DNA of 64,000 nucleotides, taken from a virus (Duplodnaviria; Caudoviricetes). The DNA lies in IMG/VR virus record IMGVR_UViG_3300031994_000006, positions 128,001 through 192,000 of that record, one strand, 5' to 3'. The notes under the pieces are model-generated. The model was given only the letters and a program-made list of their open reading frames with translations. It was not told the origin of the DNA and made no database searches. This document shows, one piece after another, positions 31,122 to 51,162 of this stretch (position 1 is the first letter of the stretch; each line of letters starts with the position of its first letter). A program made the position numbers and the translations under genes.

Positions 31122-31235
31122 ATGATTTTCGCAATAACAAATATACGTCCGGTGAACGTCTACGGTAATGATGACCGCAGGCGCGAAGGTACGTATGCAG
31201 AGGCCGGAAGGCCCGAGGGTTATACGGAAATATAA
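31122..31235 (+). CDS. tRNA cluster 1 leader peptide (37 aa, MIFAITNIRPVNVYGNDDRRREGTYAEAGRPEGYTEI)
   Basis: ATG 31122 to TAA 31235; 35 of 37 codons are read by tRNAs of cluster 31510-39853. Confidence 0.8.
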   Translation: MIFAITNIRPVNVYGNDDRRREGTYAEAGRPEGYTEI

Positions 31236-31237
31236 TG

Positions 31238-31344
31238 ATCCTGTCAGAAATTCAAGTTCAGATGAGTGCTGATTAGAGATTTCGGAATTATTGAATGATA
31301 TGAACGGATGACAGGATTACCGGAGACGGGAATCCTGTTTTTTT
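31238..31344 (+). terminator. Attenuator 1: antiterminator and intrinsic terminator
   Basis: ATCCTGTCA (31238-46) complementary to TGACAGGAT (31309-17); terminator ACAGGATT/AATCCTGT + T-run (31311-31344). Confidence 0.8.
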
Positions 31345-31450
31345 ATGCCTGACGATGTGACCGGCCGTAAACCGGAGCGTTTTATAGATACAAGGCGACT
31401 GCGGCCGCCTGGCAAGAAGGGCCTCAAGGGGTCCGGGCCGAAAACCGCGG

Positions 31451-33830: not shown

Positions 33831-33834
33831 CGTT

Positions 33835-33908: not shown

Positions 33909-33916
33909 CATAATAT

Positions 33917-34245: not shown

Positions 34246-34249
34246 CTCT

Positions 34250-34335
34250 GGCAGGCTATGCGGTGCCGATACTTCTGCGGTGGCTGAACACATTCGACTG
34301 TAAATCGAACTTAAAACGGCCCGTAATCCCCTGCT
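34250..34335 (+). ncRNA. Y-RNA-like element 1
   Basis: Terminal stem, GGCTAT-N10-TACTTCT; carries TTCGA-CTGTAAA-TCGAA anticodon-like hairpin. Confidence 0.65.
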
Positions 34336-34344
34336 TGTCTCTAA

Positions 34345-34434
34345 TAAACGGCTATACTCGGCGGCTACTTCTGCAAGCTGTAGTCAGCGCCTGATTCGTA
34401 ATCTGGAGAAACGCCCGCCGGTCCTTTCCGTTTA
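34345..34434 (+). ncRNA. Y-RNA-like element 2
   Basis: TAAACGG/CCGTTTA stem; GGCTAT-N10-TACTTCT. Confidence 0.65.
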
Positions 34435-34443
34435 TCCTATACA

Positions 34444-34515
34444 TGCGGCTATGTCATCCGTTACTTCTCAAAGAATGATCTGCAACATCGTGTCCCACGG
34501 ATGACTTTTTCCGCA
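34444..34515 (+). ncRNA. Y-RNA-like element 3
   Basis: TGCGG/CCGCA stem; GTCATCCGT/ACGGATGAC inner stem; motif present. Confidence 0.65.
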
Positions 34516-34537
34516 GTTTTACGTATAATAAACGACT

Positions 34538-34610
<73 letters not shown>

Positions 34611-34612
34611 CT

Positions 34613-34695
34613 AAACGGCTATCCGGCATGCTACTTCTCAGCTCGATAAAGAATGTAAAGGGTACATGCTATTCCGCTTGCCGGGTTTTCCGTTT
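34613..34695 (+). ncRNA. Y-RNA-like element 4
   Basis: AAACGG/CCGTTT stem; GGCTAT-N9-TACTTCT. Confidence 0.65.
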
Positions 34696-34702
34696 TCCAT
34701 AT

Positions 34703-34777
34703 GTTCCCAAGGGCGATATAGGTCGAGCCACAGGACTTTCGATCCTGAAAAAGTGGGTTCGATTCCCACTGGGAATA
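34703..34777 (+). tRNA. tRNA-Glu(TTC)
   Basis: CAGGA-CTTTCGA-TCCTG. Confidence 0.8.
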
Positions 34778-34783
34778 CTCAAT

Positions 34784-34857
34784 GCTCCCATAGGCGAACT
34801 GGTTAAGCCGTCACACTCTCAATGTGGAGATTCCGGGTTCGAGTCCCGGTGGGAGTA
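34784..34857 (+). tRNA. tRNA-Glu(CTC)
   Basis: TCACA-CTCTCAA-TGTGG. Confidence 0.9.
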
Positions 34858-34940
34858 CGCAAAGTCCCGGCTGGGCCTGCTGTTCATGCAGGACTTAGGG
34901 GCCGGCGCCGTGGGGCCACCGTCAAAAACCCCACTCCTTC

Positions 34941-35015
34941 GGGGCGTTAGCTCAGTCCGGTCAGAGCACCTGCTTTGCAAGCAGGGGGTCGACGGTTCGA
35001 ATCCGTCACGCTCCA
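34941..35015 (+). tRNA. tRNA-Ala(TGC)
   Basis: CCTGC-TTTGCAA-GCAGG; G3:U70. Confidence 0.93.
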
Positions 35016-35135
35016 CGAAAGGGAAAGCGTGTAGAAACCGGCGGCGGCCGGCGGAGCCTCAGGCAGGATATCCCCTCGGCATAACGGACCGGCTCTGACC
35101 GGTACCATGCCGTCAGTCTTTGGTCCTGTCAACCT

Positions 35136-35216
35136 GCCGGAATGGGACAGTGGTCGACTCCATCGGTATCGTAAACCGACTCGAAAGACACGGCGGTTCG
35201 AATCCGCCTTCCGGCT
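35136..35216 (+). tRNA. tRNA-Thr(CGT) with extended variable arm
   Basis: TCGGT-ATCGTAA-ACCGA. Confidence 0.8.
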
Positions 35217-35221
35217 CCTAA

Positions 35222-35350
35222 GGCAGGCTATGGCCGCTGCTACTTCTCCTTAGCGGAGTACGCGAGAAGGCTCAGCGACGTGATTCATTGCACGTGTACC
35301 GGGGTTCGAATCCCCGCCCCGCTGTCAGTCGTCACGGTCTGTTCCCTGCC
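35222..35350 (+). ncRNA. Y-RNA-like element 5 (contains a whole tRNA-like module)
   Basis: GGCAGG/CCTGCC stem; motif; internal ACGTG-ATTCATTG-CACGT and GGGG-TTCGAAT-CCCC. Confidence 0.65.
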
Positions 35351-35358
35351 CCTGTACA

Positions 35359-35461
35359 GTCCGGCTATCCGCCTGTGGTTACTTCTGAAGCTGGTTACTC
35401 GTAGGTTCGAATCCTGCTTTTTCCGCCATGGGAAAAAAGTCACCGCACGGTCTTTCCGGAT
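35359..35461 (+). ncRNA. Y-RNA-like element 6
   Basis: GTCCGG/CCGGAT stem; motif; internal T-arm GTAGG-TTCGAAT-CCTGC. Confidence 0.65.
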
Positions 35462-35570
35462 TTCCATAAGCGTTCAGCCGCCCGGGCAGGTCACATACAG
35501 GCGACAAGCCCCGTGACTCCGGACGGGCCTGCGCGTTTAACGGTTATATACGGAAACCAAAGACATATCA

Positions 35571-36143
35571 ATGCGATACATTTTCTTCGACACCGAGACG
35601 ACGGGCGTTCCCAGGAACTACAAGGCGCCGTCGACGGATACGGACAACTGGCCGCGGCTCGTGCAGCTCGGCTGGATCCTGGCGGACGGACCTGACACAG
35701 TCGTCCATACGGGAAACCTGATCGTCAGGCCCGACGGATTCGAGATACCCGAGGAGGCCGCGAACGTGCACGGTATACACACGGCCGACGCTCTGGAGAA
35801 GGGCATACCCCTGGCCGACGCGATCAATCAGTTCATAGAGGATCTCAATCAGGCCGACCTGATTGTAGGACATAATGTCGGTTTCGACCTCAAGATCGTG
35901 GGCGCCGAGATGGTCCGCCTGGGTATCGGCGACATGATGGAATCCAAGCCTCATTTCGACACGATGCAGGCGTCGACGAGCTACTGCGCCATCCCTGGCA
36001 AGTTCGGGTACAAGTGGCCGAAGCTCATGGAGCTGCATCAGAAGCTGTTCGAATGCGGCTTCGAGGATGCGCACGACGCCATGGCAGATATCACGGCGAC
36101 GGCCAGGTGCTTCTGGGAAATGATGAGAAGAGGCCTTGCATAG
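35571..36143 (+). CDS. DEDDh 3'-5' exonuclease (DnaQ-like)
   Basis: FDTETTG, GHNVGFD, AHDAMAD. Confidence 0.9.
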   Translation: MRYIFFDTETTGVPRNYKAPSTDTDNWPRLVQLGWILADGPDTVVHTGNLIVRPDGFEIPEEAANVHGIHTADALEKGIPLADAINQFIEDLNQADLIVGHNVGFDLKIVGAEMVRLGIGDMMESKPHFDTMQASTSYCAIPGKFGYKWPKLMELHQKLFECGFEDAHDAMADITATARCFWEMMRRGLA

Positions 36144-36144
36144 T

Positions 36145-36234
36145 ATGATAGTGATGAATACCGAGGCGATAGTCGCCGCCTGTGTGATAGGGGCGTGCCT
36201 CATAGCATGGATGATATTCCATAAGGACCGTTAG
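36145..36234 (+). CDS. Small membrane peptide (29 aa)
   Basis: MIVMNTEAIVAACVIGACLIAWMIFHKDR directly after exonuclease stop. Confidence 0.45.
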   Translation: MIVMNTEAIVAACVIGACLIAWMIFHKDR

Positions 36235-36243
36235 GTCCTGAAT

Positions 36244-36333
36244 GCACGGGTAAAGCGTAACTGGATGACCGCCCCGGTCTACGAAACCGGTCTATCTGAA
36301 AAGAAGTTGCGGGTTCGAATCCCGCCCCGTGTA
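36244..36333 (+). tRNA. tRNA-Arg(ACG) with long variable region
   Basis: CCGGT-CTACGAA-ACCGG. Confidence 0.82.
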
Positions 36334-36462
36334 CACAGACAGGGCAGCACTCCGTAGAGTCTGAGATTCACCATTCTCTTTGCGGACCATACTGTCCTTT
36401 GTCGCGGAATTCGCCGGCATGCCCGGTGATATATAAACCAAAATCAACCAAACAGCAAGACT

Positions 36463-37140
36463 ATGAAGAAGCTCATGGGCCTGGCGTTTATCTGCCTCAT
36501 GGCCTGTATGACATTCATGCTCACCGGCTGCACCAAGTGTGCCGGAGACAAGACCGAGCCCGCCATGGACAGTGTCGCGACTGATTCTGCAAAGACAGAT
36601 ACCGTCGTGACGGAGGGCTACAACGTGGAGCAGGTCATCTCCACCGATCGTCAGGCCATGTTCATGGCCTACAAGCAGGACTATCGCTGGTATGAGACCT
36701 GCATCGTCCTGAAGGACTTCCTTGACGAGGACTGCGACGGCACCGTCGTCGGCCTGTCCAATATCTTCCAGGTCGTCTTTGAGGAGGGCAACGGCGCCGA
36801 TGTTTATGTCGTCATGTATGCGCATGCGGCCAACAAGGGCGATTCTGTGACGACCGTGCATTCATTCTGGATTGAAGATTATGACATGGGTAAGGAGCCT
36901 GTGAAGATGATTACGTTCGCAGAGGCCTTCCAGAAGATCCAGGAGACTAACTATCCGAAACCGCATTCCAAGCACTGCGTGCTCCGTAAGGAGGTGGGAC
37001 CGAAGGACTGCAATCCTCAGTACATCTTCGGCAACGCACAGGCTCAGCTCTATGTGGACGCCGTAACCGGCAAGGTCAGTCCTGACAATCCCGTATTCGA
37101 GGGCGTAAAGCTGGCCAAGCCTCTCGGTGAGTGGCCCTGA
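36463..37140 (+). CDS. Lipoprotein
   Basis: Signal peptide with LTG-C lipobox. Confidence 0.75.
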   Translation: MKKLMGLAFICLMACMTFMLTGCTKCAGDKTEPAMDSVATDSAKTDTVVTEGYNVEQVISTDRQAMFMAYKQDYRWYETCIVLKDFLDEDCDGTVVGLSNIFQVVFEEGNGADVYVVMYAHAANKGDSVTTVHSFWIEDYDMGKEPVKMITFAEAFQKIQETNYPKPHSKHCVLRKEVGPKDCNPQYIFGNAQAQLYVDAVTGKVSPDNPVFEGVKLAKPLGEWP

Positions 37141-37164
37141 TAAAGGGACAGGATAACACATGAT

Positions 37165-37200
37165 AAATTGCAGATTTGAAATATTCAAATCTGCAATTTT
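37165..37200 (+). terminator. Intrinsic terminator-like hairpin
   Basis: AAATTGCAGATTTGAA/TTCAAATCTGCAATTT. Confidence 0.65.
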
Positions 37201-37245
37201 AGCATTTATGACCTCAGGTTATATAATGCGTTAAAATATTACAAT

Positions 37246-37318
37246 CGGGATGTAGCCCAGTAGGTAGGGCGCTACGTTCGGGACGTAGAGGTCGCTGGTC
37301 CGAGTCCAGTCATCCCGA
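37246..37318 (+). tRNA. tRNA-Pro(CGG)
   Basis: CTACG-TTCGGGA-CGTAG. Confidence 0.9.
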
Positions 37319-37457
37319 CTTCGGAAGATGGTGTAGGCGCACAGCCGGGTTGGTCCGGCACCCGCGGAAATAAGAGGATCCGGAATACCGCGGAGCAATG
37401 GGCATTCGTGCAATGCCGTATGCGGTGACCGAAGCAGCGAGCGGTCTCTTCCGTCCA

Positions 37458-37531
37458 CGGGGTGTAGCTCAGTAGGTTAGAGTACGCGTCTGGGGGGCGT
37501 GAGGTCGTCCGTTCGAGTCGGATCACCCCGA
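37458..37531 (+). tRNA. tRNA-Pro(GGG)
   Basis: CGCGT-CTGGGGG-GCGTG. Confidence 0.9.
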
Positions 37532-37535
37532 CAAT

Positions 37536-37607
37536 CAGGATATAGCACAGCGGCAGTGTGCATGGTTTGGGACCATGCGGTCGGCGGTTCGAATCCGTCT
37601 ATCCTGA
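37536..37607 (+). tRNA. tRNA-Pro(TGG)
   Basis: CATGG-TTTGGGA-CCATG. Confidence 0.88.
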
Positions 37608-37788
37608 CAGATCAATGAGGATCCTCTGAGATGGGTGCTCCAAGGTAGAAGCTTGAGGATTTAAACGGATAATGTTTTATGCGACAACAAAAGCAGCTGT
37701 TCATTCAGCAGCGCCCGTGGGTATTAATCCCGATGAAAATATCGCCTCATTTGATTTAAACGGATACAAACAGACAAAGACATACAGT

Positions 37789-38232
37789 ATGAGATTTCTT
37801 CGTTCAGAGACCGTCGTATCGGTCGAGGATCTTAAGGCACAGGGACTGCAGGAGCAGCGCGTGCAGACGGACTATCACGGCAAGAACCGTGAGAGCATGT
37901 GGGGCTATCTCCTCGGGGACGGCTCGGTCGTCCTGGTCAACACGCCGGTTGCCGCCCATCCGTTTCCGCTCTGGGGACTTGTCGCGTCGCCTGAGCATGT
38001 CAAGGACGGCGACGGCAAATGCAGGCTTGTCATTCTTGACGATATCATCAAGGAGACTCCGGACGAGGCGGTTATCACCCTGATGCAGGAGGCATATGAC
38101 TTCCTGAATGAGAAGGGCGAGCTCAAGGAGGACGGTACCCTTGATACAGGACTCTATATCGATCGCCGCAATGCGGAAATCGAGAAATTGCGCCTGGAGA
38201 AGGTCGACAGGCCTGAAGAGGATGAACGCTGA
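37789..38232 (+). CDS. Hypothetical protein
   Basis: Likely start MRFLRSE at 37789. Confidence 0.6.
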   Translation: MRFLRSETVVSVEDLKAQGLQEQRVQTDYHGKNRESMWGYLLGDGSVVLVNTPVAAHPFPLWGLVASPEHVKDGDGKCRLVILDDIIKETPDEAVITLMQEAYDFLNEKGELKEDGTLDTGLYIDRRNAEIEKLRLEKVDRPEEDER

Positions 38233-38401
38233 TATGGAAGACGTCGACAAGGAGATATTGAACCGTGACAGGCACTGGAACGAGTTCATAGCAGAATGGG
38301 AGTCTGAACACGGCGTATCCGCGTCGGGCGAGGACTCTGAGGTCCTCTTCAGGGAGTTCATGACCTGGGAGGAGAACAGAGGTTTGAATCCGGGACAGTA
38401 G
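38222..38401 (+). CDS. Hypothetical acidic protein
   Basis: MNADMEDVDKE..., overlaps upstream stop. Confidence 0.55.
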   Translation: MNADMEDVDKEILNRDRHWNEFIAEWESEHGVSASGEDSEVLFREFMTWEENRGLNPGQ

Positions 38402-38411
38402 CCCGGGTTAT

Positions 38412-38485
38412 GTTCCCGTAGCTCAGCCGGTTAGAGTATCACCATGACAAGGTGGGGGTCGGCGGTCCGAATCCGCCCGGGAACA
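38412..38485 (+). tRNA. tRNA-Val(GAC)
   Basis: TCACC-ATGACAA-GGTGG. Confidence 0.9.
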
Positions 38486-38486
38486 C

Positions 38487-38777
38487 ATGAGCACGTTTGA
38501 CGTATACAGATCCTGCGGCCGCGTGGTCGGCGGCAGGGAATCGAAGGCCGCGGCCGATCTCGCGTTCGGCAGATGTTCCTGGTGGAAACGGGGATGGCTG
38601 CATTTCGTCGTATGGAACGAGAGGCGCAGGCGGTATAATGCCGCCGAGATCAGGCTGCCGGGTGACAGTCCGTGGTCCGGGTGCCTGCAGTCCGTATTTA
38701 CCGCCCTCACGGCCCTGTTCTTCCTGTCGGTGCTCATATATGCGGCCGTGGAAATAATAGGATCGATGTTCCCGTAG
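38487..38777 (+). CDS. Hypothetical membrane protein (stop lies inside next tRNA)
   Basis: 96 aa with C-terminal TM helix. Confidence 0.45.
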   Translation: MSTFDVYRSCGRVVGGRESKAAADLAFGRCSWWKRGWLHFVVWNERRRRYNAAEIRLPGDSPWSGCLQSVFTALTALFFLSVLIYAAVEIIGSMFP

Positions 38778-38842
38778 CTCAGCCGGTTCAGAGCACCTGG
38801 CCTACAACCAGGGGGTCGGCGGTTCGAATCCGTCCGGGAACA
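38768..38842 (+). tRNA. tRNA-Val(TAC)
   Basis: CCTGG-CCTACAA-CCAGG. Confidence 0.88.
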
Positions 38843-38849
38843 CAGACGC

Positions 38850-38923
38850 ACGCCCGTAGCTCAGCGGATCAGAGCGCCGGACTCCGGATCCGGAGGTCGC
38901 GGGTTCGAGTCCCGCCGGGCGTA
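38850..38923 (+). tRNA. tRNA-Arg(CCG)
   Basis: CCGGA-CTCCGGA-TCCGG. Confidence 0.88.
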
Positions 38924-38937
38924 CGGATATATACACC

Positions 38938-39642
38938 ATGATAAAATCAGTTCAATACTGTTTACATTGCGGTAAACCTTTGAATAAGACACAGAAAAAA
39001 TTCTGTTCAAGATCTTGTTCAGCATCATTTACGAATAAGGGAAAAATTCACTCAGAGTCAAGCAGACATAAATGCAGTGAATCTGTAAAACGTATCCGTA
39101 GGCATACTGAAAGAATCTGTAAAGTATGCGGATGTTCTTATTATTATGTCAAACATATATCCACTAAGATTTTCTGTTCTCATAAATGTTTTGAATATTA
39201 TAAATCACATAAGAATGAATTTCTTTCACCTGATTCAATCAGGCGGATGTCAGAAGGCGGACGGAAGAGCATGGATATACAAAAAGATTCCAGGAGATCC
39301 AGAAATGAAATAGAGTTCTGTTCATTATGTGAGGAAAAATTCGGTACAGCTGCAGTTTTGCATAATATACCTTACTTTAATGGATGGGATGCTGATGTTA
39401 TTATACCTGAATTAAAAATAGCGATATTATGGAATGGTGCCTGGCACTATAAACAGATATATGATAAAAGTTCATTGATTCAGATTAAGAATCGTGATAA
39501 CATAAAAATATCTGAAATCAAAAAAGCAGGATTTATTCCATATGTTATTAAGGATTTGGGAAAGGCAAATTCTGAATTTGTCAAAAATCAATTTAATATT
39601 TTTTGTAAATGGATTGATGACCTTTCAGAATCTGTGCATTAA
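38938..39642 (+). CDS. Free-standing putative homing endonuclease (Zn fingers plus DUF559/Vsr-like nuclease)
   Basis: CLHCGK..KKFCSRSC and CKVCG..FCSHKC; WDADVIIPELKIAILWNGAWHY; markedly AT-rich versus flanks. Confidence 0.7.
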   Translation: MIKSVQYCLHCGKPLNKTQKKFCSRSCSASFTNKGKIHSESSRHKCSESVKRIRRHTERICKVCGCSYYYVKHISTKIFCSHKCFEYYKSHKNEFLSPDSIRRMSEGGRKSMDIQKDSRRSRNEIEFCSLCEEKFGTAAVLHNIPYFNGWDADVIIPELKIAILWNGAWHYKQIYDKSSLIQIKNRDNIKISEIKKAGFIPYVIKDLGKANSEFVKNQFNIFCKWIDDLSESVH

Positions 39643-39657
39643 ATATATAAATAGTTT

Positions 39658-39668
39658 AGTTCTTTGAC
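39658..39668 (+). promoter_or_regulatory. boxA-like element, copy 2
   Basis: AGTTCTTTGAC. Confidence 0.6.
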
Positions 39669-39684
39669 TTATTGAAACCTATAT

Positions 39685-39769
39685 AGCGGGATGGTGTAGT
39701 TGGTAACACAACAGCCTCATAAGCTGTGGACAGATAATGCTTGCGCAGGTTCGAGTCCTGCTCCCGCAA
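39685..39769 (+). tRNA. tRNA-Met(CAT), initiator-like 1:72 mismatch, long variable region
   Basis: ACAGC-CTCATAA-GCTGT; AGCGGGA/TCCCGCA. Confidence 0.75.
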
Positions 39770-39781
39770 CATAATTAACAT

Positions 39782-39853
39782 CGCGGTGGTGGTAGCAATG
39801 GTAGCTCGCAAGACTCATAATCTTGAGACGTGGTTCGAATCCAACGACCGCAA
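39782..39853 (+). tRNA. tRNA-fMet-like (CAT), divergent
   Basis: CGCGG 5' end, CAAGA-CTCATAA-TCTTG, C1:A72. Confidence 0.65.
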
Positions 39854-39857
39854 CAAA

Positions 39858-39937
39858 GATTCGGCTATTGGTTGGATTACTTCTGTAAACTTCTTAACCA
39901 TGACATCCAGGAATTCATCCTTCCGTCTTTCCGAATT
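39858..39937 (+). ncRNA. Y-RNA-like element 7
   Basis: GATTCGG/CCGAATT stem; GGCTAT-N9-TACTTCT. Confidence 0.62.
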
Positions 39938-40032
39938 GTTCTTTCCGGGGATGACGACATGTACGGCAACCGGTTGCCGTGAAACAGGTCCGTCTGATGA
40001 CGTTTGTCCGGTGACGCATGTCCACCCGGGGT

Positions 40033-40130
40033 TTCCGGCTATCGGCCAGATTACTTCTATGCAGCGGGCGTTGACCGTCCGCGGCAGACCATCTTACACA
40101 GTCTTGTAACATCTGTCTGTATTTCCGGAG
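40033..40130 (+). ncRNA. Y-RNA-like element 8
   Basis: TTCCGG/CCGGAG stem; motif present. Confidence 0.62.
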
Positions 40131-40134
40131 TTTT

Positions 40135-40208
40135 GGGGTATTAGCTCAGTTGGCCAGAGCGCTTGCTTCGCATGCAAGAGGTCGACGGTTCGAATCCGTC
40201 ATGCTCCA
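40135..40208 (+). tRNA. tRNA-Ala(CGC)
   Basis: CTTGC-TTCGCAT-GCAAG; G3:U70. Confidence 0.92.
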
Positions 40209-40218
40209 CTTTGACGAA

Positions 40219-40977: not shown

Positions 40978-41423
40978 GGGCTTGTATTTGGGTTTGACGG
41001 GCGGAATGATAAGGAGGACATGCAGGAAGGCAGTTTCCATAAAGGCAAAGCCAATAACCGGCAACAAGAAAGCAAAGGTCGTCAAGATGACGGCAGCTCG
41101 CGCGACCATGAAGATGGCTGCTTAATCCGATAGGATTCAAGTTTCGCGCCTGGGATTGCAGGGGATCCCAAGGGACATAAGGGCGAGCCTTCGGGCAGCC
41201 TGCCCCCGCCGACGAGGTCTGGACGGCATCCCTTACCGCAAAGCCGTAACCTGGTGGAACAGTTGACCTCCGGTCAGCCCCTCAGCGGAAGATCCTCCGG
41301 GATCGTTTGACCGCACAGGAGAAGAATACTCCTGAGGCCTCCGGGCCTGAACAAATTGAAAAGCATGTACAATCCTCTGATGCTGAACGTTCGGACGGGG
41401 GTTCGAATCCCCCCAGGTCCACC
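40978..41423 (+). ncRNA. ssrA: tmRNA
   Basis: 5' GGGCTTG...TTTGAC pairs with 3' CAGGTCC-ACC (G3:U); GACGGGGGTTCGAATCCCCC T-arm; tag frame GNKKAKVVKMTAARATMKMAA* after ATAACC. Confidence 0.9.
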
Positions 41424-41587
41424 CTGAAAGCGGTCCAATAGTCGGATCGTTTTTTATTATGACATGAGAAGAACCTGTCATAATAAATAATATGACCAAC
41501 CTGGCAAGGCATGCCTCAGGGCATGTACAGGTCCTCCGGACAGGGGGACCTTTTTTTATTTCCGCGTAAAAAGATATATAGATTGTT

Positions 41588-44602: not shown

Positions 44603-45129
44603 AAAAGGACAGGGTTGTAAAGGCCTCGGCCGTCATGGCCCTTCAGAAGGATGCCGTCCGGACCGTAATTACGGTCCGGTCAGGCGATGTCATGGAGGTC
44701 GCCGACAAGGCGGTCGCCGATCTTACCAGGGATATTGACAGGTATCCTGAGATAATATGCAATGAGCTTATCAGGAATATTCTTCTCATGGCCGAGCACG
44801 GCGACTATTACATGAACTATGATACCGACAGGCTGTATGAGCTGCTTCCCGGATGGGATAAGGCCGAGCCGTCTGAGAAGAACGCGATAATCCGCAAGGT
44901 TGTGATCATGATGCTTGACGCGGGTTATATGATCAAGCCGTGCTATCTGTTCGGCGACGTGCTCTGGCACCTGGAGATCTCATGGTCGGACGATATGAGA
45001 AAGAAGGCTAACAGGAAGGCTGATAAGATACACAGAAACGAGCGCCGCCGTGAGTCTGTCAGGAAATTCTTCAGGGGTATCGCGGAATTCATGAGATGCG
45101 GTCTTTCATCGGAATACAGGAACCTATGA
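44599..45129 (+). CDS. Hypothetical protein
   Basis: 176 aa; resembles next ORF (IxxxAxxG...GY...EISW/EIWW). Confidence 0.65.
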   Translation: MKKDRVVKASAVMALQKDAVRTVITVRSGDVMEVADKAVADLTRDIDRYPEIICNELIRNILLMAEHGDYYMNYDTDRLYELLPGWDKAEPSEKNAIIRKVVIMMLDAGYMIKPCYLFGDVLWHLEISWSDDMRKKANRKADKIHRNERRRESVRKFFRGIAEFMRCGLSSEYRNL

Positions 45130-45533
45130 AAAAGGACAGGAAGGTTACATGGACGCAGGTGTCGAACTGCAGCTTCAGATGCCCTGGCTGCTGCGAGATC
45201 TCGAATGCTTTCATAAAGACACTGGATGCCGAATGGGCTAAGTTCAGGGCGGACGAGGAAAGGAAACGGCAGTTTGAGTGCGTGCCTGATGTCGCGGTGA
45301 TTATCGAGAAGATGATTCCTGAAATGGACGAAAGGATAAAGCAGGCCGCGGACTGCGGCAATTACAGGACGACGCTCTACCTGGATCATCTGGACAGGCA
45401 TCTTGAGTACTATAAGGCCAAATACAGTCCTGATGAGATATACAGCGAATTGCGTAAATATTATAAGTCTCGCGGATATAAGATGGATTCGGACATGAAT
45501 CATGTACTCGGCTTCGAAATCTGGTGGAAATAA
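45126..45533 (+). CDS. Hypothetical protein, paralogue of upstream ORF
   Basis: Both start MKKDR; similar C-terminal pattern. Confidence 0.65.
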   Translation: MKKDRKVTWTQVSNCSFRCPGCCEISNAFIKTLDAEWAKFRADEERKRQFECVPDVAVIIEKMIPEMDERIKQAADCGNYRTTLYLDHLDRHLEYYKAKYSPDEIYSELRKYYKSRGYKMDSDMNHVLGFEIWWK

Positions 45534-45627
45534 TGCAAAAAAACGTTAAAAAGATAAATAAAAGGAGTTTTTTAAAGGATTCGGCGTCAGTACCGGCGTT
45601 AAATAGACAGAACAAAGCAAAGAAGAT

Positions 45628-45744
45628 ATGAGATCGTTGTTACAAAAATCATTCAGCTCAAAGTGCCTCCTTAAGGGCATTCAGAGTATGTCGCAGTTTA
45701 CCTGCTGGCATATTCAGCTGGATAATATGTACACGGTCGAGTAG
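45628..45744 (+). CDS. tRNA cluster 2 leader peptide (38 aa, MRSLLQKSFSSKCLLKGIQSMSQFTCWHIQLDNMYTVE)
   Basis: ATG 45628 to TAG 45744; 30 of the first 31 codons are read by tRNAs of cluster 45889-50681. Confidence 0.82.
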   Translation: MRSLLQKSFSSKCLLKGIQSMSQFTCWHIQLDNMYTVE

Positions 45745-45881
45745 CGAATCAGGAGTTCAGAGACTGTGTATGAATCCGGGAGAAAACGGAAAGACGCAGT
45801 CAAGTAAAGGAACCCAATCACAAAGTTTCCATAATTTCCAAGGGACTGCGTAATCGAAAGAGGACGCAGTCCTGTTCTTTT
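45730..45881 (+). terminator. Attenuator 2: five alternately pairing segments ending in an intrinsic terminator
   Basis: TACACGGTC 45730 / GACTGTGTA 45762 / ACGCAGTC 45794 / GGGACTGCGT 45842 / ACGCAGTCCT 45864 + GTTCTTTT. Confidence 0.82.
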
Positions 45882-45888
45882 ATACATC

Positions 45889-45965
45889 GGGGGAGTAGCT
45901 CAGTAGGTAGAGCGCCGGACTGAAAATCCGGGTCGTTAGCGGCGGTTCGATTCCGCCCTCCCCCA
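45889..45965 (+). tRNA. tRNA-Phe(GAA)
   Basis: CCGGA-CTGAAAA-TCCGG. Confidence 0.9.
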
Positions 45966-45970
45966 CTGAG

Positions 45971-45983
45971 AGTTCTTTGACAT
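45971..45983 (+). promoter_or_regulatory. boxA-like element, copy 3
   Basis: AGTTCTTTGACAT. Confidence 0.65.
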
Positions 45984-46025
45984 GTTGGCACAGCTGAATG
46001 AACGGACGGAAGGCCGTCCGTATAT

Positions 46026-46101
46026 TGGGAGATAGTTTAGCAGGTTAAAATTTCGGTCTGATACACCGGCGTCCCGGGTTCGAATCCCGGCCTCCCAACC
46101 A
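46026..46101 (+). tRNA. tRNA-Ile(GAT)
   Basis: TCGGT-CTGATAC-ACCGG; encoded CCA. Confidence 0.82.
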
Positions 46102-46172
46102 AAACTAAATCATATTTGATCTATGGATAAACGTGATGACAAATCCGGTAAACGGATTACACCAGTCTAACA

Positions 46173-46263
46173 GCCTCCATCGTATATCGGTAAGTGTCTG
46201 GAGACAGGCGGATTACTTCGGTCTTTTAAACCGACAAGCAGGGTTCGACTCCCTGTGGGGGCA
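46173..46263 (+). tRNA. tRNA-Lys(TTT) with hairpin inserted in D-loop
   Basis: GCCTCCA/TGGGGGC acceptor; TCGGT-CTTTTAA-ACCGA; GTCTG-GAGA-CAGGC insert. Confidence 0.75.
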
Positions 46264-46420
46264 CGATCAGTCAGGCCTGCGGCATAGGCGCCCAATTTGC
46301 CGTAGGAGGACTGTGTAGTTGCGTAACGGCTTACACCAAACGTACGGGATACTTAGGGTCCGTGCGGAGCCCGGGTGGCGAAAAAATTCCCGCGCCGTGC
46401 CGAGCGATAGCGGCACATTC

Positions 46421-46494
46421 GCTCCGTTAGCTCAGTTGGTTAGAGTAGGTGTCTCTTAAACATCGGGTCCAGGGTTCGAATCCCTGCCGGAGCA
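46421..46494 (+). tRNA. tRNA-Lys(CTT)
   Basis: GGTGT-CTCTTAA-ACATC. Confidence 0.9.
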
Positions 46495-46562
46495 CTTTCG
46501 TTCAGTGAATCGCCTCCGTTCAGTAATTGCTGAACGGAGCGGTTTTACTGAACGCCTTATAT

Positions 46563-46634
46563 TGGGGTATAGTATATCGGTTATTATTTCGGATTCTGGT
46601 CCCGAAGAGCTCTGTTCGACTCAGAGTGCCCCAA
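46563..46634 (+). tRNA. tRNA-Gln(CTG)
   Basis: TGGGGTA/TGCCCCA; loop TTCTGGT. Confidence 0.8.
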
Positions 46635-46640
46635 CGACAC

Positions 46641-46711
46641 TGCCCTGTGGTGTAACGGCGGCACATCAGCTTTTGGATCTGACAGACCGGGTTCGACTCC
46701 CGGCGGGGCTG
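46641..46711 (+). tRNA. tRNA-Gln(TTG)
   Basis: TCAGC-TTTTGGA-TCTGA. Confidence 0.8.
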
Positions 46712-46740
46712 CGATACATAGGGAAATTTATTTGTAATAT

Positions 46741-47571
46741 ATGGATTTTGATTTCGACAGCCCCAGGAATGGAAGACAGATTGTCAATGAGGTATTCGAG
46801 ACCTTTTACGGTAATCCTGTAAGAACCTGTTATAGAATTTCAAGGATTGACAGATCTAAATGGACACGTCTTGACTACGCACTTGAACGATATAATAATT
46901 ATTTGTCAAAATATAATACGGTTTCATTCCAAGGTGATATTGACCGCGGTATATTACAGGAAGGACTTGTCCTTTCATATCCGGTAAAGAAAGTCATGGA
47001 TGAAATCAGGAAATGTATGGAGTCTGACGGTAATATAATAGAGGCTTTAGCTGAATCTGAATCAGTTATAAAGATTCTTGTGGCTAAGGGATTTACCGAT
47101 AATGTCAAGGAATCTCTGAAATCTTTGATAGATTTATGTGGATGGCATCTGACAGGCAGCGGTGAATATTCCAAAGGACTTGATGTCATATATTATGAGT
47201 CAAAATTTCCGGCGGATATTACGGATCTGATATATTCAAAATATAAAAAACTCTATCATATAACGCCTGCCCGGAATTTCAGGTCGATTGAGAAGAAGGG
47301 ACTGATACCGAGATCCTATAACAAGAGATCGGACTATCCGGACCGTGTGTATTTCCTGAAGACTGATAATGCGGCAGAGTATGAAAACCTCGCGAAATCG
47401 TCGAATCCGGATATTCATGAATGGTCGCTCCTTGAAATAGACATCTCAAAGGAACCCGTCACCGGACGCCGGTACAGATTCTATAATGATCCGTTTACGA
47501 ACAATGCAGTTTTCACATATGACAATATTCATCCCGGACTTGTAACCCTTAAGAGGACTTTCCGGGTATGA
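46741..47571 (+). CDS. Protein with C-terminal ADP-ribosyltransferase/Tpt1-like fold
   Basis: LYHITP...SIEKKGLIPR...DRVYF...LLEID...FTYDNIHP; AT-rich insert within tRNA cluster. Confidence 0.55.
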   Translation: MDFDFDSPRNGRQIVNEVFETFYGNPVRTCYRISRIDRSKWTRLDYALERYNNYLSKYNTVSFQGDIDRGILQEGLVLSYPVKKVMDEIRKCMESDGNIIEALAESESVIKILVAKGFTDNVKESLKSLIDLCGWHLTGSGEYSKGLDVIYYESKFPADITDLIYSKYKKLYHITPARNFRSIEKKGLIPRSYNKRSDYPDRVYFLKTDNAAEYENLAKSSNPDIHEWSLLEIDISKEPVTGRRYRFYNDPFTNNAVFTYDNIHPGLVTLKRTFRV

Positions 47572-47589
47572 TGCGTTTAATTTTAACAT

Positions 47590-47661
47590 GGGGGTCTTAG
47601 TTTAACGGTAGAATGACAGATTGTGGCTCTGCAGACGTAGGTTCGACTCCTACATTCCCCC
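47590..47661 (+). tRNA. tRNA-His(GTG)
   Basis: CAGA-TTGTGGC-TCTG; G-1 and C73. Confidence 0.8.
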
Positions 47662-47667
47662 CTTTAC

Positions 47668-47738
47668 TGGTCCATGGTGTAACGGTAGCACGTCAGATTC
47701 TGGCTCTGGAAGTGCGGGTTCGAATCCTGCTGGACCAA
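47668..47738 (+). tRNA. tRNA-Gln(CTG), second copy
   Basis: TCAGA-TTCTGGC-TCTGG. Confidence 0.9.
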
Positions 47739-47760
47739 CGTTGCAGGGTCGCTCCCTGCC

Positions 47761-47831
47761 GCGCCGACGGCTGGTAAGCCGCGGTCCAGGACCCCAATCC
47801 TCACCGGGAGGTTCGATTCCTCTATGGCGTG
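47761..47831 (+). tRNA. Degenerate tRNA-like element (loop CCCCAA)
   Basis: T-arm GGAGG-TTCGATT-CCTCT, D-like CGGC-TGGTAA-GCCG, weak acceptor. Confidence 0.35.
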
Positions 47832-47921
47832 CAACTGGATATTTAAACGTTGAGGGCCGTGGAGGTCTTCGGTCCACCGGTAACCAGTCCGGCGTCCGGC
47901 CGTACGATAACGGCCGCATAC

Positions 47922-47992
47922 AGGCCTGTGGTGTAACGGTAGCATGCCGGTCTCCAAAACCGTCGGTCTTGGTTCGAGTCCTGGCAGGCCTG
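47922..47992 (+). tRNA. tRNA-Trp(CCA)
   Basis: CGGT-CTCCAAA-ACCG. Confidence 0.9.
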
Positions 47993-48148
47993 CTTCGTTC
48001 TGGTCACGAAGAGCGAGCTCCGTAAAGTTACCGAAACTCCGCCTGCGGCAATTCGCGATAGCCTGCAGACCGGTCACGAAAAGTAGGGAGGATGGGAGAC
48101 GTAGGACTTGAGAAAACCCTAACGTATGGTAATGGGCAGGACGATTAT

Positions 48149-48222
48149 GCCGGCATAGCTTAGCGGTCTAAAGCGCAGCACTCATAATGCTGAGATCGAT
48201 GGTTCGAATCCATCTGCCGGTA
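48149..48222 (+). tRNA. tRNA-Met(CAT), elongator
   Basis: CAGCA-CTCATAA-TGCTG. Confidence 0.88.
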
Positions 48223-48224
48223 CA

Positions 48225-48296
48225 GAGTAGTTGTCCGAGCGGTTTAGGTCGTGGTCTGCAAAACCACGCAGGTGGGTTCGACTCCCACACTGCTCT
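48225..48296 (+). tRNA. tRNA-Cys(GCA)
   Basis: GTGGT-CTGCAAA-ACCAC; U73. Confidence 0.9.
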
Positions 48297-48314
48297 CAAA
48301 TTAAATTATATAAA

Positions 48315-48387
48315 AAACGGTGTAACTTCGCGGGTGCGGAGCAGGGCCCAAAGCTCTGAAGACAGGTCCGAGTCCTGTACCCGTTTT
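48315..48387 (+). tRNA. Degenerate tRNA-like element (loop CCCAAAG)
   Basis: AAACGG/CCGTTT acceptor, CAGGG/CTCTG stem, ACAGG-TCCGAGT-CCTGT. Confidence 0.35.
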
Positions 48388-48392
48388 TATAT

Positions 48393-48476
48393 GCGCCTGT
48401 GGCGGAATTGGTAGACGCGCCACTTTGAGGTGGTGGTGCCCGAAAGGGTGTGCAGGTTCGAGTCCTGTCAGGCGTA
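48393..48476 (+). tRNA. tRNA-Leu(GAG)
   Basis: CCACT-TTGAGGT-GGTGG; long variable arm. Confidence 0.92.
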
Positions 48477-48481
48477 CATGA

Positions 48482-48558
48482 GGTCCCGTAGCTCAGCGGA
48501 TTTTCAGAGCATCAATCTTCTAAATTGAGGGTCGTTGGTTCGAATCCAACCGGGATCA
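48482..48558 (+). tRNA. tRNA-Arg(TCT)
   Basis: TCAAT-CTTCTAA-ATTGA. Confidence 0.9.
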
Positions 48559-48675
48559 CGCAGATACGGACTTGAGGACGTGGGTGAGACTCCCTTAAGT
48601 GCTCGGACGATAGTAAGTCCTTGAGCTGCCTGACAATAGTACGGCCCGAGTGATCATAGAGCCGGAAGTCCATTC

Positions 48676-48762
48676 GGAGAGTAAGCCCTGACGGTGATGG
48701 GTGCTCGTTGGAAGCGAGTTGGTGCGTGAATAGCGCATTCCGTTCGACCCGGATGCTCTCCG
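48676..48762 (+). tRNA. tRNA-Ser(GGA)
   Basis: GCTCG-TTGGAAG-CGAGT; long variable arm. Confidence 0.85.
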
Positions 48763-48773
48763 CATAAAATAAT

Positions 48774-48857
48774 GGAGGCTAAACCCTGACGGTGAGGGGG
48801 ACTGTCTTGAAAACAGATCGTACCTTCGGGTATTCCGTTCGACCCGGATGGTCTCCG
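48774..48857 (+). tRNA. tRNA-Ser(TGA)
   Basis: CTGT-CTTGAAA-ACAG. Confidence 0.85.
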
Positions 48858-48862
48858 CATTT

Positions 48863-48949
48863 GGAGGGTAAGCCCTGACGGTGATGGGGCATGTCTCGAA
48901 AACATTGCGTACCTTCGGGTATTCCGTTCGACCCGGATGCCCTCCGCCA
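48863..48949 (+). tRNA. tRNA-Ser(CGA)
   Basis: ATGT-CTCGAAA-ACAT; encoded CCA. Confidence 0.85.
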
Positions 48950-48961
48950 GACATAACATAA

Positions 48962-49210
48962 TTGATTATGAGCTATAAGGAAAAAACGTTTTTGTTTATG
49001 GTCGCTGTCATAATGATGGGCATTTTGCTTTATCTGAAGGATCAAAATGAAAAGCATGACGCAGCCTTAAAGGCACAGCTTGAGAAGGATATTAAGGAAG
49101 ATGCCGCTGAAAGGTGGAACCATGCCGTCGACAGTACCGTATTCGCCGGAGATCTGTGTATACAATGTCCGTACTGTGGCAGGATAATCAATTCAGACAG
49201 CTTCAAATAA
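48962..49210 (+). CDS. Small membrane protein with C-terminal CPYCG
   Basis: 82 aa, N-terminal TM helix. Confidence 0.6.
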   Translation: MIMSYKEKTFLFMVAVIMMGILLYLKDQNEKHDAALKAQLEKDIKEDAAERWNHAVDSTVFAGDLCIQCPYCGRIINSDSFK

Positions 49211-49306
49211 GGAGAGGTACCCAAGTCGGTGAAGGGGTCGGTTTGCTAAACCGATAGGTCGGGAGATAACCCCGGCGCGCGGGTTCGAGCCCCGCCCTCT
49301 CCGCCA
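49211..49306 (+). tRNA. tRNA-Ser(GCT)
   Basis: TCGGT-TTGCTAA-ACCGA; encoded CCA. Confidence 0.93.
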
Positions 49307-49309
49307 TTC

Positions 49310-49395
49310 ACCCCCGTGCCGGAATTGGTAGACGGGCTTGACTCAGGATCAAGTGGGCCGGAAGGCCCGTGCGGGTTCGAGTCCCGCCGGGGGTA
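49310..49395 (+). tRNA. tRNA-Leu(CAG)
   Basis: CTTGA-CTCAGGA-TCAAG. Confidence 0.92.
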
Positions 49396-49418
49396 CTTAA
49401 AAATAAACGGACTTGCTT

Positions 49419-49667
49419 ATGATAGCCCATGATCTGAAGACAATCGTCAAAGGACGCGCGGATCTTGACTGTGTCAGGAGCGGAGGCGTCGCAACATATC
49501 ACATCACCGTCGCCGACGGCAGCGTGTATACGCTTGATATCGATATGACCGACAGGGCGGACGTGGGCGCCACGGCGTCGTTCATGGCCCATTACGACAG
49601 GTCCGTCATACTCATGAGGTGGATCAGGCGCGCCTATGACAGGGGTGAGTTATACAGGATTCGCTGA
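49419..49667 (+). CDS. Hypothetical protein
   Basis: About 82 aa; DVGATASF...LMRWIRRA motif. Confidence 0.65.
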   Translation: MIAHDLKTIVKGRADLDCVRSGGVATYHITVADGSVYTLDIDMTDRADVGATASFMAHYDRSVILMRWIRRAYDRGELYRIR

Positions 49668-49673
49668 TATAAT

Positions 49674-49753
49674 ATCCCTGTGGCGGAACGGTCTACGCAG
49701 CCGTCTCAAAAGCGGTCCCGGAAGGGGTCCGGGTTCGAATCCCGGCAGGGATA
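49674..49753 (+). tRNA. tRNA-Leu(CAA)
   Basis: GCCGT-CTCAAAA-GCGGT. Confidence 0.9.
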
Positions 49754-49761
49754 CATATCAC

Positions 49762-49854
49762 GGCCCTACAGCCGGACTGGTCAGCAGGCGCGGGACTTAA
49801 AATCCTTGAGCGTATGGGGACATGCGCGTCCGGGTTCGAATCCCGGTGGGGCTA
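49762..49854 (+). tRNA. tRNA-Leu(TAA)
   Basis: GGGA-CTTAAAA-TCCT; long variable arm. Confidence 0.85.
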
Positions 49855-50104
49855 CGTTTGTGACTTCCGGGGTTTCCGGGCGTTAAACAGATAAATATAG
49901 GGCTGTACTTCGTACGGCCTTTAAAAATAACATTTATACAGCGAGATTTCCCGCAACGGACGCGCCTTTCGTAACGGCGGCCGCGGGGAGGATTAGATTC
50001 CGGTTTTGCTTTTGCGGAGAGACATGCCAGGCGCGTAGAGTTCTTAGCGTAGCGCGTCCGGCGGGGATCCCGGGTCTGGGATGATACGGCCGCAGGTTTT
50101 TATT

Positions 50105-50545
50105 ATGATGAGAAGAATTATTTTGGCTGTCCTGATGGCCCTGTCGTTTTCGGCAACCGTCACGGCACGCCAGGCCGGTAGCACGGCCGTAAAGAGCGGA
50201 GAGTACCCATTGCAGCGCGTCATGGACGCGATCATACAGGTGGAGTCACAGGGAAACCCGAGGGCGCACAACAGGAACGGCGACTGTGCCGGAATCCTGC
50301 AGATAACCCAGGTGCTCGTCAGGGAGGCGAATCAGATACTGAAGGACAAGAAGTCCAAGAAGAGGTATACGATGGCCGACAGGTATGACGCCGAGAAGTC
50401 GAAGGAGATGTTCAGGCTTATCCAGGCCAAGTACAATCCCGGCAATGACGAGGAGAAGGCGATGCGCCTGTGGAACGGAGGACCGGGATATTCGGTCAGG
50501 GCCACGGACGGGTATGTGAGGAAGGTACGAGCGAAGCTCAGGTAA
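50105..50545 (+). CDS. Secreted lytic transglycosylase/lysozyme-like (SLT) protein
   Basis: Signal peptide; AIIQVESQGN catalytic Glu, GILQIT, WNGG. Confidence 0.8.
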   Translation: MMRRIILAVLMALSFSATVTARQAGSTAVKSGEYPLQRVMDAIIQVESQGNPRAHNRNGDCAGILQITQVLVREANQILKDKKSKKRYTMADRYDAEKSKEMFRLIQAKYNPGNDEEKAMRLWNGGPGYSVRATDGYVRKVRAKLR

Positions 50546-50609
50546 CCAGAGAGCAGAGAGATCATGAGGGTTCGGCAGGTTAGGCCGGATCTTCATTTTT
50601 TGTCTAACC

Positions 50610-50681
50610 GCCCCGGTAGCTCAGGGGTAGAGCGCTTCCTTGGTAAGGAAGAGGCCGGCGGTCCGAATCCGCCCCGGGGCT
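50610..50681 (+). tRNA. tRNA-Thr(GGT)
   Basis: CTTCC-TTGGTAA-GGAAG. Confidence 0.9.
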
Positions 50682-50724
50682 CTTATTCAGCTGTGCCTTT
50701 TTCCGTTGCATGCGTTTAATGTAT

Positions 50725-51162
50725 ATGGAGAAGCATCGTTACAGTCATTTCGTCTATTTCTGGGTATCATATGTCGCCAGGCACAGGCTGTATGACCATA
50801 CTTCCAGCTATACGGATTACGGGAACTGCGTCGTCAGGCAGCCTGTCAGGCAGTTCGGCAAGGAATTCAACTCGGCGTATGTGACCGAGCTGCTGTCATA
50901 CCAGCCGGAGCATCTCATGAAGAGCAGGTTCTATGACGGCATATACGAGCCGGGCTGTGACATAACCGTCATATCATTCATGCCGGCGACTAAGGACATG
51001 CTTACCGACCTGAACAAGTTCGATGCGCAGAAATGGCTTTACTTCGTACAGAAGAATATCAGGGAAAAGGCCGCGGCCGGTCCCGGTGAATACTCGAAGG
51101 AGCTGCCCAGGCTGATGACCGATCAGCGGTTCCATGAACTTGAGATGCTATATGATAGATAA
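50725..51162 (+). CDS. Hypothetical protein
   Basis: About 145 aa ORF. Confidence 0.6.
   Translation: MEKHRYSHFVYFWVSYVARHRLYDHTSSYTDYGNCVVRQPVRQFGKEFNSAYVTELLSYQPEHLMKSRFYDGIYEPGCDITVISFMPATKDMLTDLNKFDAQKWLYFVQKNIREKAAAGPGEYSKELPRLMTDQRFHELEMLYDR

Follow-up and report, generated by a model that had tools for sequence, protein, structure and literature searches.

How might a phage adjust the transcription of a transfer RNA (tRNA) array to the supply of the very tRNAs that the array encodes? The question is raised by positions 45,628 to 45,881 of a 64,000-nucleotide stretch of DNA (hereafter the window) from a virus of the Caudoviricetes (Duplodnaviria), which comprises bases 128001-192000 of the 207,794-bp IMG/VR virus record IMGVR_UViG_3300031994_000006 (estimated 76% complete). 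Phage tRNA arrays are usually viewed as constitutive codon-usage patches or as counters to tRNA-cleaving defence. Upstream of one array in this window, which we call cluster 2, lies a short leader open reading frame (ORF) whose codons match the anticodons of the array, followed by a chain of mutually exclusive RNA helices that ends in an intrinsic terminator. We consider it probable (roughly 0.7) that this unit would act as a ribosome-mediated transcription attenuator which senses the supply of the array's own tRNAs and gates read-through into them, and what the analysis itself shows is the codon-anticodon match, the exclusive helices, the terminator, the conservation of the unit and the modelled switch point.

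Codon content of the leader

The leader ORF lies on the strand of the array, 145 nucleotides (nt) upstream of tRNA-Phe, and is closed by an in-frame stop codon. Thirty of its first 31 codons can be decoded by cluster-2 tRNAs, the sole exception being GGC, and together these codons sample 19 of the 20 cluster-2 anticodons, with only Ser(GGA) left unsampled. The remaining codons, 32-38, are codons of the other array in the window (cluster 1) save ATG, the one member of the cluster-2 set among them. Synonymous codons are spread over the isoacceptors: five Leu codons between them address all four Leu tRNAs, Lys and Gln are each written with both of their codons, and Ser with four, such that 12 amino acids and 19-20 isoacceptors are represented, mostly by one or two codons each. 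The leader is thereby enriched in codons that report on the product of the downstream genes, in an unusual form in which each codon appears about once and none occurs in runs.

Among the 186,330 stop-free 31-codon windows in all six frames of the whole record, codons 1-31 ranked first on both codon count and anticodon coverage, and the windows ranked next were overlaps of the same one. When the anticodons of the phage were split at random into two groups of the same sizes, none of 200,000 partitions reached 30 of 31. Taken together, these comparisons confirm that the match of the leader to cluster 2 is far above chance. An earlier note on this DNA, made from the letters alone, had listed the leader codon by codon and had claimed that codons 1-31 are all read by cluster-2 tRNAs except GGC, that every cluster-2 anticodon except Ser(GGA) is covered, and that the last seven codons fall outside the cluster-2 set apart from Met and contain a pairing segment, Z. 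The sequence reads exactly as quoted there and our counts bear out all three claims, with Z lying in codons 35-37 and the coverage figure counting Ser(TGA), Ser(CGA) and Lys(TTT) in addition to the tRNAs reported by ARAGORN.

These three tRNAs define the array against which the leader was scored. ARAGORN gives 18 tRNAs in cluster 2 and misses Ser(TGA) (48774-48856) and Ser(CGA) (48863-48945), which were recognized by Rfam at the E-value threshold together with reading of the anticodon loop. Lys(TTT) (~46173-46264) is unusual and scores 21.9 bits, under the Rfam cut-off. With these additions the array carries 20 distinct anticodons decoding 29 codons, its members being Phe, Ile, two Lys, three Gln, His, Trp, Met, Cys, four Leu, Arg(TCT), four Ser and Thr(GGT). 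The Ser tRNAs with anticodons GGA, TGA and CGA are three similar copies in tandem (48676-48945). The unusual Lys(TTT) has canonical acceptor, anticodon and T arms and a D region about 18 bases longer; at the matching position in a related contig, L020, stands a canonical Lys(TTT) of 71 nt.

A HMMER search with the leader peptide against 1.84 billion representatives matched only long repetitive proteins and revealed no peptide family. Exact look-up in the protein collection found the leader before cluster 1 (leader 1, below) as a singleton and did not find the leader before cluster 2.

RNA folding and the position of the ribosome

Downstream of the sensor codons, five segments (Z, A, B, C and D) can pair in succession, each with its neighbor. 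We searched blindly for this arrangement by starting from C, taking its best upstream partner, then the best upstream partner of that partner, and so on; at 45791, 45762 and 45728 the search arrived in turn at B, A and Z, the three links being worth -14.7, -13.1 and -15.2 kcal/mol. The chain energies sum to -43.0 kcal/mol, compared with -15.9 +/- 5.3 kcal/mol in dinucleotide shuffles, none of 300 of which reached the observed value. The terminator helix C:D (-17.4 kcal/mol) joins 45842-45851 to 45864-45873 and leads into the T-rich tract TGTTCTTTT; 7 nt past this tract, at 45889, is the first base of tRNA-Phe. The locus therefore holds mutually exclusive helices (B:C versus C:D, set via A:B and Z:A) and an intrinsic terminator before the first tRNA. 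Because the terminator loop is interrupted, a simple terminator scanner reported only the inner 5-bp stem. In the minimum-energy fold of 45600-45885 (z-score -6.3), A:B and C:D are formed together with a helix that the earlier note lacked, Y:Z, in which codons 2-6 (segment Y) pair with Z and close a strongly folded leader.

To follow the effect of a ribosome, the transcript was folded up to the end of C, before D, with a 30-nt ribosome footprint forced to remain unpaired (mask folding). With codons 2-18 or 24-30 in the ribosomal A-site, Z:A (9 bp) and B:C (~8 bp) form, which is the antiterminator state. From A-site codon 31 onward Z is masked, A:B forms with ~7-8 bp, B:C falls to 0.2-3 bp and C is left free for D. 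When the ribosome is assumed to extend anywhere from +9 to +15 nt in the 3' direction, the switch shifts only from codon 33 to codon 30, a range that brackets the change of codon class at 31|32. In these models, then, the position of the ribosome selects the fold, with the switch at A-site codons 30-33. In ribosome-free RNA Y:Z forms and A:B is favored, and untranslated RNA is therefore predicted to be terminator-prone.

Much of what the earlier note had proposed for this relay was recovered. Its chain of Z:A, A:B, B:C and C:D was found without prior knowledge of the segments. The masking of Z by full translation, with A:B formed and C freed for C:D, was reproduced from codon 31 onward, and its placement of the codon-class switch about one ribosome footprint before Z agrees with the modelled range of 30-33 against the boundary at 31|32. 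Its claim that an early stall yields Z:A and B:C stands for codons 2-18 and 24-30 and fails for codons 19-23 when Y:Z is allowed, and the read-through state that its scheme without Y would give for untranslated RNA becomes, once Y:Z is included, a terminator-prone one.

A second unit before cluster 1

A comparable unit, attenuator 1, stands before tRNA cluster 1. Its leader (leader 1) has 37 codons, of which codons 4-37 (34 of 34) belong to the cluster-1 set and sample 17 of 21 anticodons, making it the top window of the genome by anticodon coverage. This count treats one of the three CAT tRNAs as an Ile2 that reads ATA, and it includes Tyr(GTA) (31598-31691) and Arg(ACG) (36246-36331), both found with Rfam. 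Mask folding of its three segments placed the switch at codons 35-36 of 37, and the matched codons reach the very end of the leader. The two leaders split the code in register with the two arrays, and leader 1 is an independent replicate of the pattern. As modelled, the same rule holds in both units: the matched codons run exactly as far as a stall would still yield read-through.

Codons 2-3 of leader 1 (ATT TTC) are those read by the first two cluster-2 tRNAs, and the antiterminator strand of attenuator 1 begins 3 nt past the leader stop codon. The homologue route that we used for the cluster-2 unit yielded nothing for attenuator 1 beyond an identical copy (L027) and relatives in which no tRNA array adjoins the gene.

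Conservation among relatives

Five contigs carrying the cluster-2 unit were obtained from other samples (L019, L020, L021, L024 and L025) by way of homologues of the 135-amino-acid upstream gene product (93-52% amino-acid identity). Nucleotide identity is ~98% over the leader and relay and 98.7-100% over the tRNA genes, while it falls to 91.5% in the upstream spacer of L025, where the differences are concentrated at 45581-45592, and to 64% in the upstream gene, whose product drops to 52% amino-acid identity. The array start and the attenuator seem, from these alignments, to be either conserved or moving as a cassette; since they behave as a cassette, conservation by itself argues only weakly for function.

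All five core segments (Z, A, B, C and D) are unchanged in every relative, and the variable sites lie in loops and flanks (45750, 45761, 45802, 45805 and a 1-nt deletion at 45840). At position 45771 the window has T and the relatives have C, by which the closing G.U at the base of Z:A becomes G-C. The window and L019 have CTC at codon 14, L021, L024 and L025 have TCC, and L020 has TCT; all three are cluster-2 codons. The TCC and TCT found in four of the five relatives are codons of Ser(GGA), the one gap in the window's leader, and these leaders would sample all 20 anticodons if those phages carry the same 20 species. The substitutions at codon 14 and 45771 fit the attenuator model.

Conservation in L020 ends within a few nucleotides of the T tract, after which a different tRNA-Phe follows. 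A mosaic boundary separates 45126-45533 from 45534 onward, the upstream protein being only 52-54% identical in L024 and L025, and from the stop of the upstream gene through tRNA-Lys (46495) the DNA is 91-100% identical, with lower values further into the array. The small hairpin at 45580-45598, ~30 nt before the leader ATG, differs in sequence in each of L020, L021, L024 and L025; each version seems, by eye, able to fold on itself, and that of L025 is a perfect GC palindrome. In the leader transcript this hairpin may act as a structural element at the 5' end. At L025:4449-5910 a copy of Ser(GGA) is followed by an ORF of 74 amino acids and then by an HNH endonuclease gene.

Other routes to relatives were less productive. 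BLAST of 45100-46200 against GenBank phages gave tRNA-Phe matches only, and exact-pattern scans of IMG/VR with the terminator and with a 25-mer of the leader returned only the window's own record. A search of IMG/VR for related loci with the upstream 145-amino-acid protein or with the 276-amino-acid protein inside the array gave no loci, and a metagenome scan with an alignment of the upstream protein gave one contig, which ends before the downstream region.

RNA contigs, a promoter-like motif and initiation in the host

Assembled contigs of four rumen metatranscriptome runs were placed on the window. One RNA contig spans 45628-45892 with zero differences, from the leader through the T tract into the start of tRNA-Phe. 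RNA contigs from two studies start at 45622, 45628 and 45630, within 8 nt of one another, while DNA contigs extend upstream; this hints, at most weakly, that an RNA begins near the leader start codon, with DNA carry-over as a possible source. No RNA contig was found across ~45350-45620, and depth was 2-5x higher over the leader than past the terminator, neither of which we use as evidence.

Between tRNA-Phe and tRNA-Ile lies a motif of the form (G/T)AGTTCTTTGAC(A/T)T, which has four good copies in the 208-kb record (31450, 39657, 45970 and 54150). Three of these (31450, 39657 and 45970) stand 28-60 nt before a tRNA, and two of the three are followed by a short GC hairpin. The succession of TTGACA, a small hairpin and a tRNA gives the motif its promoter-like look, and it is probably a promoter or a processing signal.

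Across the whole record, GGAG occurs within 20 nt upstream of only 2% of long ORFs and start contexts are A/T-rich, which suggests that the host initiates translation without Shine-Dalgarno pairing.

Proposed mechanism and alternative explanations

The attenuator model can be set out in steps. Transcription would start in the ~95-nt spacer upstream of the leader; a ribosome would load on the A-rich 5' end and translate the 38-codon leader as the polymerase advances. Slow decoding at any of the 31 sensor codons would mean that Z is not yet reached when A, and then C, emerge, whereupon Z:A and B:C would form, D would stay unpaired and transcription would read through into tRNA-Phe and the rest of cluster 2. 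A ribosome that arrives at the last codons or the stop codon would cover Z and allow A:B and C:D, with termination 7 nt before tRNA-Phe, and in the absence of a ribosome Y would take Z and make the RNA terminator-prone. The extra relay stage would widen the time window in which ribosome transit across 31 codons is timed. The net effect would be negative feedback, in which abundant phage tRNAs, or host tRNAs reading the same codons, stop transcription of the array.

Several observations weigh against this model. Stalls at codons 19-23 let Y:Z close around the ribosome in the simple mask model, predicting termination where read-through is called for, a closure that is itself physically doubtful. 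Once D is included, equilibrium folding favors the terminator in every scenario, and the switch must therefore be kinetic; in classical attenuators the terminator likewise wins at equilibrium. The terminator loop of 12 nt is interrupted and the T tract is imperfect. The homologues are nearly identical and show no double compensatory change, and with ~8 variable sites in six sequences the sparing of the core segments would arise by chance about one time in four, which is not significant. L025, an incomplete contig, shows only Ser(GGA) where the window has three Ser tRNAs, yet its leader keeps TCA and TCG. In five distant relatives (37-55% identity, reached through a 438-amino-acid neighbor protein) the tRNAs are dispersed and no convincing codon-matched leader was seen. 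The promoter-like motif GAGTTCTTTGACAT lies downstream of both attenuators, here directly after tRNA-Phe; were it to act as a promoter, transcription of most of the array could escape the attenuator, and if both are active the attenuator may gate only part of array transcription, adding to it. We know of no report of leader-peptide attenuation in hosts that lack Shine-Dalgarno use. Finally, translation of the ORF, its coupling to the polymerase, termination and its efficiency, and the physiological signal are all parts of the model that we infer.

A candidate leader among the distant relatives is weak: L008:10498-10623 (minus strand) is an ORF of 41 codons, 17 of them for Asn, Thr, Asp, Ser or Phe, with a hairpin and T run after it, and 231 nt separate it from a downstream Phe-Thr-Asp-Asn-Ser tRNA group. 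The genome is AT-rich, and these residues are frequent in it.

The codon match needs only translation and names no output, which leaves room for a translated, codon-matched leader that acts instead on the stability or processing of the precursor RNA, through access of ribonuclease (RNase) E or RNase P, or that delivers stalled ribosomes to the phage transfer-messenger RNA (tmRNA). A phage tmRNA gene is indeed present at 40978-41424, the position of tRNA-Phe 7 nt past the T tract means that an RNase P cut is needed there anyway, and the downstream promoter-like motif weakens a purely transcriptional role. However, an output of this kind would not explain why a four-link chain of exclusive helices ends in a GC-rich stem and T tract (0/300 shuffles), nor why, in both units, the modelled switch falls at the boundary between codon classes, and we regard it as unlikely.

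The ribosome stalls in the same way whether a tRNA is missing or uncharged, as is known from the trp and his attenuators, and a leader spread over 19-20 anticodons would average over many amino acids. The switch might on these grounds respond mainly to charged-tRNA or amino-acid supply and to general translation capacity, as a global gauge of speed. Such a gauge would have no need to divide the code between two leaders in exact register with two arrays, or to choose synonymous codons by downstream isoacceptor (five Leu codons for four Leu tRNAs, both Lys, both Gln), which makes it improbable as the main function.

A chance match of the ORF, in RNA that simply terminates the upstream operon or forms a structured non-coding 5' leader, is very improbable: short ORFs are common, gene callers left this one uncalled in five related contigs and the RNA is strongly structured (z = -6.3), but the ORF ranks first of 186,330 windows and has the location and strand expected of a leader to the array, 0/200,000 random partitions give the match, cluster 1 provides an independent second case, and the codon-14 substitutions remain within the cluster-2 set. 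A plain intrinsic terminator of the upstream operon was considered separately and ruled out by the alternative-fold chain together with the matched ORF.

If the attenuator reading is extended to both units, they could tentatively be seen as a two-channel sensor of the whole code, in which loss of any tRNA species would switch on the array that replaces it and the products would switch it off again; each leader would then, just as tentatively, be a kinetic timer with about one codon per isoacceptor of its own array. Candidate causes of such tRNA loss are anticodon nucleases of the host and destruction of host tRNAs by the phage itself. The wider context, phage tRNAs as a counter-measure to tRNA-cleaving defence systems, is described in PMC12409363.

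Genomic setting

The features discussed here are collected in Table 1. The virus, a phage of the rumen, is probably a megaphage, since a protein identical to one of the record's is also found on a 443,820-bp contig, and near-identical DNA occurs in gut metagenomes of sheep, goat and bovine. ARAGORN finds 41 tRNAs in the record, all within two same-strand arrays inside the window, and protein genes and the tmRNA gene stand between the arrays. The tmRNA gene (Rfam, 72.6 bits) is absent from the ARAGORN output. Two tRNAs of cluster 1, at 35251-35326 and 33835-33909, are odd, one having an 8-nt anticodon loop (ATTCATTG; ARAGORN anticodon 'tcat') and the other a 6-nt anticodon loop. Relatives carry suppressor tRNAs (CTA, TCA), of which there are none in this record.

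Table 1. Positions in the window of the cluster-2 unit, its sister unit and the associated tRNA arrays.
Feature	Position	Strand	Basis and remarks
Intergenic region before leader	45534..45627	+	A-rich unstructured stretch before ATG; small hairpin ~45580-45598
Leader ORF, 38 codons + TAG	45628..45744	+	ATG 45628, TAG 45742-45744
Sensor part of leader, codons 1-31	45628..45720	+	30/31 codons read by cluster 2; 19/20 anticodons
Segment Y (codons 2-6), partner of Z in ribosome-free RNA	45632..45645	+	Minimum-energy and mask folding
Segment Z (core TACACGGTC, 45730-45738), codons 35-37	45729..45739	+	Sequence, folding, blind search
Segment A (GACTGTGTA; core 45762-45770), partner of Z or B	45762..45771	+	Folding, blind search
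Segment B (GACGCAGTC; core 45794-45801), partner of A or C; B:C is the antiterminator	45793..45801	+	Folding, blind search
Segment C (GGGACTGCGT; core 45844-45851), 5' arm of terminator or partner of B	45842..45851	+	Folding, blind search
Segment D (ACGCAGTCCT; 45864-45871), 3' arm of terminator, then T-rich tract TGTTCTTTT (45873-45881)	45864..45881	+	Folding
tRNA cluster 2, presumed regulated genes	45889..50682	+	21 tRNA genes, 20 anticodon species
Promoter-like motif GAGTTCTTTGACAT	45970..45983	+	Between tRNA-Phe and tRNA-Ile
Attenuator 1, before tRNA cluster 1	31122..31345	+	Leader ORF 31122-31235; antiterminator, terminator, T run
Attenuator 1, S1 (antiterminator strand)	31237-31247	+	Pairs with S2
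Attenuator 1, S2	31307-31318	+	Pairs with S1 (antiterminator) or S3 (terminator)
Attenuator 1, S3, 3' arm of terminator	31330-31339	+	Then T run
tRNA cluster 1	31510-40209	+	ARAGORN

Comparison with known systems

To our knowledge, product feedback on tRNA genes through the ribosome has been described for no tRNA operon, and we know of little on demand sensing by tRNA genes beyond promoter-level control by growth rate; full-text literature searches gave no paper on leader-peptide control of tRNA genes. Over 45500-50750 no match at E <= 5, and over 30000-52000 no match at the gathering score, was obtained to the Rfam amino-acid operon leaders (Trp, His, Leu, Thr, Phe), the T-box or a riboswitch. 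If the attenuator reading is true, a virus would gauge the speed of decoding separately for each isoacceptor and use the tRNAs themselves as effectors in the control of its tRNA genes, and a relay timer of several stages would be one form that attenuation logic can take. In addition, the leader would be a natural, compact reporter sequence for tRNA depletion, and a short ORF whose codons mirror the downstream anticodons would be the signature by which such regulators could be recognized in large phages.

The phage unit shares with trpL, hisL, leuL and pheL, the attenuators of amino-acid biosynthesis operons in Proteobacteria, a short leader, alternative hairpins that exclude one another and, ahead of the first regulated gene, an intrinsic terminator, as well as a fold set by the position of the ribosome and a terminator-prone ribosome-free RNA, Y:Z corresponding to the 1:2 helix of trp. 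Whereas the trpL-type leaders regulate enzymes and carry a run of codons for one amino acid, the phage unit precedes tRNAs and carries about one codon for each of ~20 anticodons. A stall in a trpL-type leader masks a specific segment 1, while a stall anywhere in 30 codons of the phage leader would act by leaving Z unreached; and the four segments of the trpL type contrast with the five or six of the phage-encoded unit, which has an extra relay stage.

Sensing of several tRNA species by one leader is found in ilvGMEDA (Ile, Leu and Val) and thr (Thr and Ile), although those leaders cover two or three amino acids with many repeats and the phage leader spreads over 12 amino acids and 19-20 isoacceptors, its synonymous codons being matched to the individual isoacceptors. 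The T-box riboswitch likewise couples tRNA status to read-through of a terminator via an antiterminator, but it binds one uncharged tRNA without a ribosome, by means of a specifier codon and a conserved T-box sequence, whereas the phage unit has an ORF and no T-box match. In the E. coli pheST attenuator, where a leader peptide controls an aminoacyl-tRNA synthetase operon, ribosome-mediated attenuation likewise bears on part of the translation machinery; there a single amino acid is sensed and a protein enzyme is regulated, whereas in the phage unit the product of the operon, tRNA, would be the very molecule that is read out.

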